A stretch of DNA of 4,471 nucleotides from a virus (IMGVR_UViG_2703718812_000015); one strand, 5' to 3'. Shown: positions 1,483 through 3,456, counted from the first letter of the stretch. The notes: generated from the letters alone by a model not told the origin. Numbers and translations: made by a program.

Positions 1483-3456
1483 TTACGGGTTATTCACTTC
1501 CACTGTTATACTTTCAATCAGCACCGGATATGTCGCACCGCTAGTGATATCGGTCACGCGCAATTTGTCTGCCGTAAACGTGCCGACCGGTGACTGTGAC
1601 AGCATGAACGGCGTCCCGTCCTTACCATCAATGACCGGCGTCACCTCAATACTGTTGTTACCGGCAAAACGGAAGCCCAGCGTATGCCATTCGTTATCAA
1701 ATGCGCCGAATGACCCCAGCTTCGTGTTCTGACCAGCATTTCCCTTGTGGTACATCACATTAAGGTCTGTGGCATCGCTCTGTACGTAAAACGACGCCAG
1801 CAGGTTATGACCGGCATTACCTTCCAGTGTGACGCCCTGAGGCAGTGAAGAAACCGGCCAGTACAGCGCCAGTGCGTACTGATTAGCTGTCAGTGTGCCA
1901 TCAACTTTAAAACGACAACTGATAAGCCCGCCCTTCTCCAGCAGGTCTGCGCCATTACCGGCATCATGCTGCATAAACCACGAGGAACTTCCTGTCTGTT
2001 TGGTCCACCTCAGCGCCTTACCTCCTGCAGCACCTGCATCATCAACTACCAATGCACGCCCTCCTTCAGCTCCCCATCCCTGCGGATTCAGTAAACCACC
2101 TGACTCTGTTGCACGGTAATAAAGCAGCGTTGTCACTGATTTCCCGTCCGTTGACGGTGTTGATGGTGTGTCCGGTGACGGCTTCTCATCCGGCGGCATC
2201 ACAACCTGTTCCCCACCCACCAGTTCAGCCGTCCGTCCTGCATGGAGAAGAATCGCTGAGGCAAGACGGTCAGAAATAATCCCCCTGCGTGCCCATGAGC
2301 TGAAATGGCTCGCACGGTCTGCTGACGTCCAGTTTGCCGACGTCCGGGAGGCCGCACCGTAATATCCTGATGCCGGAATATCCGGGTCTTCTTCCGGTTT
2401 GTTCGTCGGGACATTTGCTCCGTTCTCATCGGTCATGAACGGCACAAAGTGAATATTCTTTTCCGTTTTGTTTTTGTAACTGCCGTACACCGTCTGGTAA
2501 GTGGATTCGCTCTTCTGCTTCCAGAAATAAGTTGTGTCTCCACATATCCAGGGAACACCGTCAGCAGAACCACCAGCGCACTGTCCCACCATATCTGCAA
2601 GGTCCGTACGATATTGTTCCACTACTTCTGTAAAACGGGCTGTGTGATTTGCTGGCGTTCCGTCAAAGTCAAATTCCCCCTGCATCCACACCACGGCAAG
2701 CAGCACATTTTTCGGGTTCTTTGCCAGCGCGGCTTTTGTACGACCGATGAGATCCTTATACAGCGGCCTGCCCACACCCCAGCGGGTAGAACTCTCTGAG
2801 GCACCGGTCACGTCACTGTATGTTCCATCTGCCCCGGTGGTGAAAGCTGAACCACCACGGCAGCACGGAACCAGAAGAATACCCGCATTCGCCGGTATAA
2901 ACGGCAGCAGCTTTTTGGCAATATGCAGCCCCTGCCCCACGGTTCCGTACTGACCTTTCGACAGGTCAGCTTTCGGATGGTTAAGACGGCTCATGTCCTG
3001 TACATCATGCAGACAGTGGTCTGCCGGAATAATGTCGTTATATTTACAGGGAGCGCCATCCGGCGTCACTGTGCTGCGACGAGCCAGTTGCTTTATACGC
3101 GGGTCAGGACGGTCATATGTCTGCGGCAGAGGAAGCCCCTCACAGTAAGCCATGCCGTTCGACTGCCCGGCCAGTGGAATAACGTAGTAATAATCTGGCT
3201 CCGTGGTGACCACTCCCGGATAGCCACCATCCCCCGTGCCGGGCACAACCACTGGCGTGGTCACATCCCCCGTGCCGGGCACAACCACTGGCGTGGTCAC
3301 ATCCCCCTCCGCGGCAATCGCCTGCATCAGGGTATAAGGGGTTATGGCCACCGGACTACCAAACGGCTGCCAGCCCTCTTTCAGTTTGTGTGTCAGCTTT
3401 TCCGCAAGATCTGACGGCGACGCCGCCCTGACAACATCATAATGTTTAATCGACAT
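1483..3456 (-). CDS. nanS-p: Prophage-encoded sialate O-acetylesterase (NanS-p type): N-terminal DUF1737-like domain, SGNH/SASA esterase core, C-terminal beta-rich putative carbohydrate-binding domain
   Basis: 657-aa ORF, ATG at 3456-3454 with GGGAGA Shine-Dalgarno 6 nt upstream, stop TAA at 1485-1483. N-terminus MSIKHYDVVRAASPSDLAEKL..., a GQSNG motif (IPLAGQSNGMAY) typical of sialate-specific acetylesterases, and a long C-terminal domain. Size, architecture and position upstream of the S holin match NanS-p esterases of EHEC lambdoid prophages as I recall them. Confidence 0.82.
   Translation of the reverse strand: MSIKHYDVVRAASPSDLAEKLTHKLKEGWQPFGSPVAITPYTLMQAIAAEGDVTTPVVVPGTGDVTTPVVVPGTGDGGYPGVVTTEPDYYYVIPLAGQSNGMAYCEGLPLPQTYDRPDPRIKQLARRSTVTPDGAPCKYNDIIPADHCLHDVQDMSRLNHPKADLSKGQYGTVGQGLHIAKKLLPFIPANAGILLVPCCRGGSAFTTGADGTYSDVTGASESSTRWGVGRPLYKDLIGRTKAALAKNPKNVLLAVVWMQGEFDFDGTPANHTARFTEVVEQYRTDLADMVGQCAGGSADGVPWICGDTTYFWKQKSESTYQTVYGSYKNKTEKNIHFVPFMTDENGANVPTNKPEEDPDIPASGYYGAASRTSANWTSADRASHFSSWARRGIISDRLASAILLHAGRTAELVGGEQVVMPPDEKPSPDTPSTPSTDGKSVTTLLYYRATESGGLLNPQGWGAEGGRALVVDDAGAAGGKALRWTKQTGSSSWFMQHDAGNGADLLEKGGLISCRFKVDGTLTANQYALALYWPVSSLPQGVTLEGNAGHNLLASFYVQSDATDLNVMYHKGNAGQNTKLGSFGAFDNEWHTLGFRFAGNNSIEVTPVIDGKDGTPFMLSQSPVGTFTADKLRVTDITSGATYPVLIESITVEVNNP
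3228..3306. repeat. Perfect 36-bp tandem repeat (2 full copies plus 7 bp of a third) inside nanS-p, encoding VPGTGDVTTPVV twice in the inter-domain linker
   Basis: Checked base by base: 3228-3263 is identical to 3264-3299, and 3300-3306 repeats the first 7 bp. The unit is 12 codons and in frame. Confidence 0.95.

Follow-up and report, generated by a model that had tools for sequence, protein, structure and literature searches.

Does a nanS-p gene stranded in a toxin-free prophage still encode a working sialate O-acetylesterase, and how might such an enzyme be produced and leave the cell? This question is raised by a viral DNA stretch of 4,471 nucleotides (IMGVR_UViG_2703718812_000015; its full length is called the window below and coordinates are counted from its first letter), in which an initial annotation had described a NanS-p esterase as late-region cargo without accompanying toxin genes. 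Our analysis indicates that this nanS-p gene very probably encodes a catalytically competent sialate O-acetylesterase in the late operon of a lambdoid prophage that is not a Shiga toxin (Stx) prophage, with an expression that would depend on the antiterminator Q and a release that would depend on lysis by a co-resident prophage. The copy is intact and unexceptional, that of a known phage-borne enzyme, within a defective prophage of pathogenic Escherichia coli that has no toxin gene, and it is already known: as the initial annotation had stated, nothing here is novel, since the gene family and its context have been described and the exact allele is found many times in public databases.

The gene product is listed in RefSeq as WP_032362301.1 ("SASA family carbohydrate esterase"), and Pfam recognized three domains in it, each above its gathering score. 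The gene and its domains are arranged as follows.

1483-3456, minus strand: nanS-p, gene for a three-domain sialate O-acetylesterase of 657 aa; one intact open reading frame (ORF) with an ATG start, stop codon included.
3307-3447, minus strand (residues 4-50): N-terminal DUF1737 domain (PF08410); Pfam 56 bits, E 3.4e-15, profile positions 2-53 of 53.
2248-3204, minus strand (residues 85-403): NanS-like SGNH/SASA esterase core; alignment with structure 3pt5 at E 4e-118, 86.5% identity to the NanS-p protein of phage 933W.
Residues 95-287: SASA domain within the protein; Pfam 41.7 bits.
1489-2136, minus strand (residues 441-656): C-terminal lectin-like jelly-roll domain (DUF6645); match to structure 6yp6 at E 1e-96.
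Residues 506-623: DUF6645 domain (PF20350) as delimited by Pfam; 236 bits, E 7e-71.

The full three-part architecture that had been proposed for the protein is thus borne out. In addition, phrog_143 of the PHROGs collection covers the protein over its full length, and no NCBIfam model matched it. When the protein was compared with all solved structures, only two matched, over the residues given above: 3pt5, which is the 9-O-acetyl-N-acetylneuraminate esterase NanS/YjhS of E. coli O157:H7, and 6yp6, which is the NanS-p C-terminal domain of phage phi24B. The best structural relatives are therefore NanS and NanS-p themselves and not members of an unrelated SGNH family.

The SGNH-type blocks reported for 3PT5 are GQSNA (17-21), RGGSAF (120-125), MQGEFD (178-183) and R-x-SHFS (299-303, around His301) (PMC10792757), and their counterparts were all found in the nanS-p protein.

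3154-3168, minus strand (residues 97-101): block I, GQSNG, with nucleophile Ser99 and oxyanion residue Gln98; 3PT5 counterpart GQSNA 17-21.
2842-2859, minus strand (residues 200-205): block II, RGGSAF; identical to 3PT5 120-125.
2668-2685, minus strand (residues 258-263): block III, MQGEFD, with the SASA-type QGE motif; identical to 3PT5 178-183.
2299-2316, minus strand (residues 381-386): block V, RASHFS, with catalytic His384 and no Asp, as in NanS; 3PT5 R-x-SHFS.

Blocks II, III and V match 3PT5, and block I, the intact GQSNG motif on which the initial annotation had relied, departs from it at the fifth residue only. Since the four blocks are found, the protein has Ser99, Gln98, the QGE motif and also His384, and no catalytic residue is lost on alignment. 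In 3PT5, a main-chain oxygen takes the place of the usual Asp (PMC10792757); in the SASA family, the Gln of block I joins with the QGE motif in a typical "inverted" oxyanion hole (PMC9487903), and the block variants RASH and RSSH have both been reported among NanS-p proteins (PMC10462455). The carbohydrate site proposed for the phi24B C-terminal domain consists of Y510, Y515, Y540 and F611 (PMC10462455), which align with Y527, Y532, Y557 and F627 of the nanS-p protein, so that all four residues are conserved. Our statements on catalytic residues and on activity draw on secondary sources (PMC10462455, PMC10792757, PMC9487903 and PMC8065619). With these residues in place, the SGNH/SASA core, with its Ser99-His384 dyad and its "inverted" oxyanion hole of Gln98 and QGE, would de-O-acetylate 9-O-acetylated sialic acid (Neu5,9Ac2), O-acetylated mucin glycans being a probable further substrate, while the C-terminal lectin-like jelly-roll domain probably directs the enzyme to carbohydrate.

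The characterized NanS-p of the Stx2a phage 933W (L0105/z1466) is 74% identical to the nanS-p protein over its whole length, which agrees with the assignment to the NanS-p type that had been made earlier. This identity is unevenly spread, with 60% in DUF1737, about 16% in the first linker, 86.5% in the esterase core and 70% in the C-terminal domain, a domain-by-domain mosaicism that matches the one described for Stx-phage NanS-p proteins (PMC10462455). The 933W protein and its phi24B counterpart (vb_24B_21, or gp84) have the same three-domain order, SGNH blocks and aromatic sugar-site residues as the window copy, and their genes occupy the same slot, between Q and the holin gene S. Unlike them, the window copy has no stx or tRNA genes upstream, its first linker is unrelated and contains a 12-aa tandem duplication, and its prophage is defective and not a Traversvirus podophage. 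The chromosomal NanS (YjhS; 3pt5), which bears an export signal, shares the SGNH/SASA fold and the catalytic blocks with the nanS-p core (residues 85-403), but it consists of one domain only, is about 330 aa long, belongs to the nan regulon and has neither DUF1737 nor the C-terminal lectin-like domain. All the NanS-p alleles of EDL933 and O104:H4 that were tested in an earlier study, including z1466/933W, were active Neu5,9Ac2 esterases that permit growth on Neu5,9Ac2 (PMC8065619).

What kind of prophage carries this gene? Over its full length, the window matches the E. coli 2011C-4251 chromosome (NZ_CP027388.1, 1224026-1228496) at 100% identity. The same holds for several further isolates of human and bovine origin, and loci of O103:H2, O45:H2, O55:H7 and O157:H7 strains are about 99% identical to the window. 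In E. coli 2011C-4251, the prophage is lambdoid and inserted between ydfJ and rspB, with the gene order int, xis, exo, dicB, cI/cro-like, replication genes, the paa adhesin gene, hokD, DUF968, rusA, the Q antiterminator gene (273 aa; just outside the window, at 24534-25355 of the source-genome locus L002), a terB-like pseudogene, DUF3927, an STnc100/PasD-type small RNA (sRNA) gene, nanS-p, DUF1378, DUF826, a P21-type holin gene and a truncated ydfR, which adjoins an IS629-like element of the IS3 insertion sequence (IS) family (1310 bp; L002 18717-20026). In the annotated prophage of this source genome, no endolysin, Rz, terminase, head or tail genes were found, the IS3-family element standing in their place, and the host genes dinI and ydfJ come within about 5 kb past it. 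In this prophage, Q, the cro/cI-like genes and the replication genes have remained intact, and pseudogenes near nanS-p comprise terB, ydfR, nleG7 and a fimbrial gene. The same truncated arrangement is found in all the complete-genome contexts of the exact 657-aa protein (including loci L007-L014). The earlier placement of the gene in a late region therefore holds in so far as nanS-p lies between Q and the holin gene S, but the endolysin and structural genes are gone from this defective prophage and, since they were displaced by the IS3-family element, "late region" says more about the origin of this DNA than about a lytic module that still works. The description of the region as accessory or virulence-associated agrees with its content: the paa adhesin gene (AcfC family; L002 28110-28868) belongs to this prophage too, and a frameshifted nleG7 effector gene lies just past the IS element (L002 16159-16811).

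The claim that no toxin gene accompanies nanS-p was confirmed as well. Using StxA2 and StxB2 as tblastn queries, we found no stx-like sequence in the window and none in the surrounding 44-kb locus of the genome, which takes in 20 kb on each side. Run on 933W and on a Stx1a phage as positive controls, the same searches detected stx2 in the former and stx1 in the latter. By annotation, the interval between Q and nanS-p contains the terB pseudogene and DUF3927 and no stx, and no tRNA genes were found in the window. The absence of a toxin gene is unremarkable, as a nanS-p gene without stx is the rule and not the exception: EDL933 and O104:H4 each have several prophage nanS-p copies, more than their own Stx phages could account for (PMC8065619), and a 2026 survey found that fewer than 3% of linked esterase-PasA units on chromosomes are adjacent to stx (10.64898/2026.05.13.724894).

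We then turn to how the gene may be expressed and its product released. Two intrinsic terminators lie upstream of nanS-p on its coding strand.

3551-3569, minus strand: intrinsic terminator between the sRNA gene and nanS-p; 8-bp stem (7 GC) followed by T8.
4436-4453, minus strand: intrinsic terminator, candidate tR' of the late operon; GC-rich hairpin and T-run, about 80 nt downstream of the Q stop codon.

The second of these terminators could give a short pR' transcript. A promoter scan gave no match to a sigma-70-like promoter directly upstream of nanS-p and, because of this and of the two upstream terminators, nanS-p is most likely transcribed by Q-mediated read-through after prophage induction. 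For Stx2a phages, nanS-p transcription was reported to rise by 1-2.4 logs upon induction with mitomycin C (PMC10462455). At the other end of the process, we found no hydrophobic stretch at the N-terminus of the nanS-p protein, which thus has no signal peptide. Since the endolysin gene was also lost to the IS3-family insertion, release would need lysis by another lambdoid prophage of the same cell. Surviving siblings would then gain by importing and catabolizing the de-acetylated N-acetylneuraminic acid (Neu5Ac), a benefit that is established for the NanS-p paralogues of EDL933 and O104:H4 (PMC8065619).

Comparison with the closest common allele gives a view of the recent history of the gene. 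The nanS-p protein is 98% identical to a 645-aa allele of E. coli O157:H7 and O55:H7 (WP_000023170.1, for example in strain Xuzhou21), which is found on at least 1,000 contigs; of the 645 residues that align, 644 are identical. Only two differences separate the two proteins: Cys104 instead of Gly, and one extra unit of the following repeat.

3228-3307, minus strand: perfect 36-bp tandem repeat, 2.2 copies (Tandem Repeats Finder score 160, 100% matches), which encodes GDVTTPVVVPGT twice in the first linker.

The linker between DUF1737 and the esterase is thus polymorphic in length, the common O157 allele being one 12-aa unit shorter. At the DNA level, nanS-p differs from the Xuzhou21 copy (locus L004, 13261-15198) at 2 of 1938 nt (0.1%; one synonymous change and one not), so few that selection (the ratio of nonsynonymous to synonymous changes, dN/dS) is not measurable against this allele, and the flanking late-region DNA diverges from the O157 Xuzhou21 locus by about 1-1.6%. 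This lower divergence of the gene than of its flanks possibly reflects gene conversion among paralogues or a stronger constraint. The Xuzhou21 prophage has the same Q-terB(pseudogene)-DUF3927-nanS-p-DUF1378-DUF826-S neighborhood as the window, but it retains lysozyme, Rz, terminase and a protease-major capsid protein (MCP) fusion head gene where the window prophage has the IS3-family element.

Is the protein adequately described as cargo? In phage phi24B, cryo-electron microscopy and proteomics reported in a 2026 preprint showed that the NanS-p protein gp84 is an abundant virion protein, of which residues 2-57 (DUF1737) form a hexamer that occupies central hexons of the T=9 capsid, with Tyr42 as its anchor, and of which the esterase and lectin domains are freed by slow autoproteolysis (10.64898/2026.04.10.717836). 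Since a homologue is a capsid-decoration protein, the term may be incomplete for the NanS-p family and may understate a phage-side role. We therefore compared DUF1737 domains. The 933W NanS-p has Tyr42, Gly54 and SISSP in common with gp84; the window DUF1737 is 60% identical to that of 933W and retains Tyr41, with an anchor loop that is three residues shorter. DUF1737 domains in phage records fall into two types, a window type (at least 90% identity; 108 records, including Stx1a and Stx2c phages, BP-4795, 2851 and JLK-2012) and a 933W type (less than 60%; 222 records). Window-type domains (at least 92% identity) often occur with a protease-MCP fusion head (PF05065/PF04586), as in the Xuzhou21 prophage, BP-4795 and JLK-2012, and also with a lambda gpE-type MCP (PF03864) in the Stx1a phage LC645430, both head types being different from the 933W capsid (PF13252). 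We considered a strict co-variation between DUF1737 allele and capsid type and rejected it, because LC645430 pairs a window-type DUF1737 with the lambda gpE-type MCP. The NanS-p of this phage (LC645430.1; locus L006, 21248-23182) is a chimera, with a DUF1737 that is 96% identical to the window type in a protein that is, as a whole, 91% identical to the 933W NanS-p as opposed to 75% to the window copy. DUF1737 also occurs as a standalone 67-aa protein in the siphophage vB_EcoS-640R1 (ON470612.1; locus L015, 4986-5189), which is 94% identical to the window N-terminus and is encoded in the same slot between Q and holin, a position that fits a modular origin of the NanS-p family.

Several observations weigh against a Q-dependent enzyme that is still produced and released. 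The prophage is degraded (IS3-family truncation, terB pseudogene, truncated ydfR, no endolysin) so that its late operon may seldom if ever be expressed and the enzyme may never be released; in the protein itself, Cys104 replaces the Gly of the O157 allele three residues past block I, and the first linker carries a 12-aa duplication relative to that allele. One may then ask whether nanS-p is only an intact-looking ORF in a decaying prophage, unexpressed or unreleased and kept by recent descent or by gene conversion from a paralogue. The IS3-family truncation took the endolysin and all downstream genes, the neighbors terB, ydfR, nleG7 and the fimbrial gene are pseudogenes, two terminators stand before nanS-p, and the 2 differences from the O157 allele give no measure of selection. 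We nevertheless consider such silence to be quite improbable, because the ORF and every catalytic residue are intact, as are Q, the cro/cI-like and the replication genes, because the exact protein is found in 193 contig blocks from several lineages, with a closely similar allele in O157:H7 and O55:H7, and because the gene diverges far less from the O157 locus than its flanks do. It is very hard to believe, by comparison with a sialate substrate, that the esterase naturally acts on something else, such as O-acetyl groups on the lipopolysaccharide O-antigen or on the capsule, where it would aid phage adsorption: at 86.5% identity, its core resembles that of an enzyme whose action on Neu5,9Ac2 and mucin has been demonstrated, and the NanS-specific blocks and the aromatic residues of the sugar site are all conserved, even if acetylxylan esterases belong to the SASA family (PMC9487903), a receptor-access role was posed as a question before (PMC8065619) and the C-terminal domain is just 70% identical to that of 933W.

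The phi24B findings suggest another possibility, namely that the nanS-p protein serves first of all as a component of the virion, attached to hexons via DUF1737 like gp84, and that the copy in the window is an orphan, either a leftover or a protein that decorates co-resident capsids in trans. The gp84 hexamer and the autoproteolytic release of its esterase, the residues that 933W NanS-p and gp84 have in common, the standalone DUF1737 gene in the Q-S slot of vB_EcoS-640R1, the intact DUF1737 of the window copy and the near-identical O157 allele in a prophage that keeps its head genes are all consistent with this idea, which we still regard as unlikely, considering that the window domain is just 60% identical to the 933W/phi24B domain with its longer anchor loop, that window-type domains occur with two unrelated capsid types with no sign of matching to one of them, that the window prophage has no capsid genes and that the SSP motifs, which are the proposed cleavage sites, are missing from both linkers. 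Equally speculative, and doubtful on present evidence, is an evolutionary version of it, in which the family began as a DUF1737-anchored virion protein directed against O-acetylated mucus and this copy was stranded without capsid genes, although it has stayed intact and diverges less than its flanks. If that were true, the orphaned enzyme would be either a host-domesticated, public-good enzyme for mucin foraging or one that is loaded in trans onto co-resident lambdoid capsids, and the repeat linker of variable length would determine how far it extends from the surface of the capsid. A NanS-p sialate O-acetylesterase that would be expressed through Q and released by a co-resident prophage is the reading that we retain.

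The remaining features of the window are the following.

1-26: terminal inverted repeat of the 1310-bp IS3-family element that truncates the prophage.
215-550, minus strand: truncated ydfR (DUF1327) gene, from the genome annotation.
555-770, minus strand: class II (P21 S-type) holin gene; Pfam PF04971, E 3.6e-33.
846-1115, minus strand: DUF826 gene, from Pfam and the genome annotation.
1153-1335, minus strand: DUF1378 gene, from Pfam.
3597-3763, minus strand: STnc100/PasD-family prophage sRNA gene; match to Rfam RF02076 with 101.6 bits (gathering score 47), at a distance of about 140 nt on the upstream side of nanS-p.
3800-3937, minus strand: DUF3927 small ORF, from the genome annotation.
3934-4296, minus strand: terB/tciA-like pseudogene with an in-frame TAG.

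The STnc100 match next to nanS-p fits the published linkage between PasD/STnc100 sRNAs and the prophage sialic esterase gene (10.64898/2026.05.13.724894); apart from STnc100, no Rfam sRNA, AgvB and AsxR included, gave a match in the window that combined an E value of at most 0.1 with a credible score. The terB/tciA-like gene is a pseudogene in O157 Xuzhou21 too and is intact in phage PPyecE_EH1910. Beside the IS end, a perfect direct repeat of 61 bp (27-87 and 285-345) lies within two ydfR (DUF1327) fragments, indicating a local duplication or rearrangement.

The initial annotation had also warned that paralogous copies complicate assembly of this locus, and the counts bear this out. In the source chromosome (NZ_CP027388.1), 11 places match the esterase core, and among 5,426 complete genomes of E. 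coli a single genome has up to 17 such places, counts that include the chromosomal nanS, which is the source of the class with 60-80% identity. Among the 193 collection blocks with the exact 657-aa protein, the longest contig that carries it is only 2-5 kb in 162, and many members of the nanS-p cluster are "partial" proteins on contigs of 2-6 kb. The window itself looks like a repeat-bounded draft contig, since its 4471 bases start in an IS end and stop just short of Q.

In practice, the value of this finding lies in annotation and assembly: nanS-p belongs to a set of near-repeats, about ten in each genome, which break up short-read assemblies of enterohaemorrhagic E. coli (EHEC), and it flags an accessory, prophage-derived and virulence-associated region. 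The phi24B structure of 2026 raises the question of whether copies in capsid-less prophages retain a decoration role on the phage side. For the bacterium, the gene described here is one more intact NanS-p copy in the pool that lets EHEC use the O-acetylated sialic acids of mucin.

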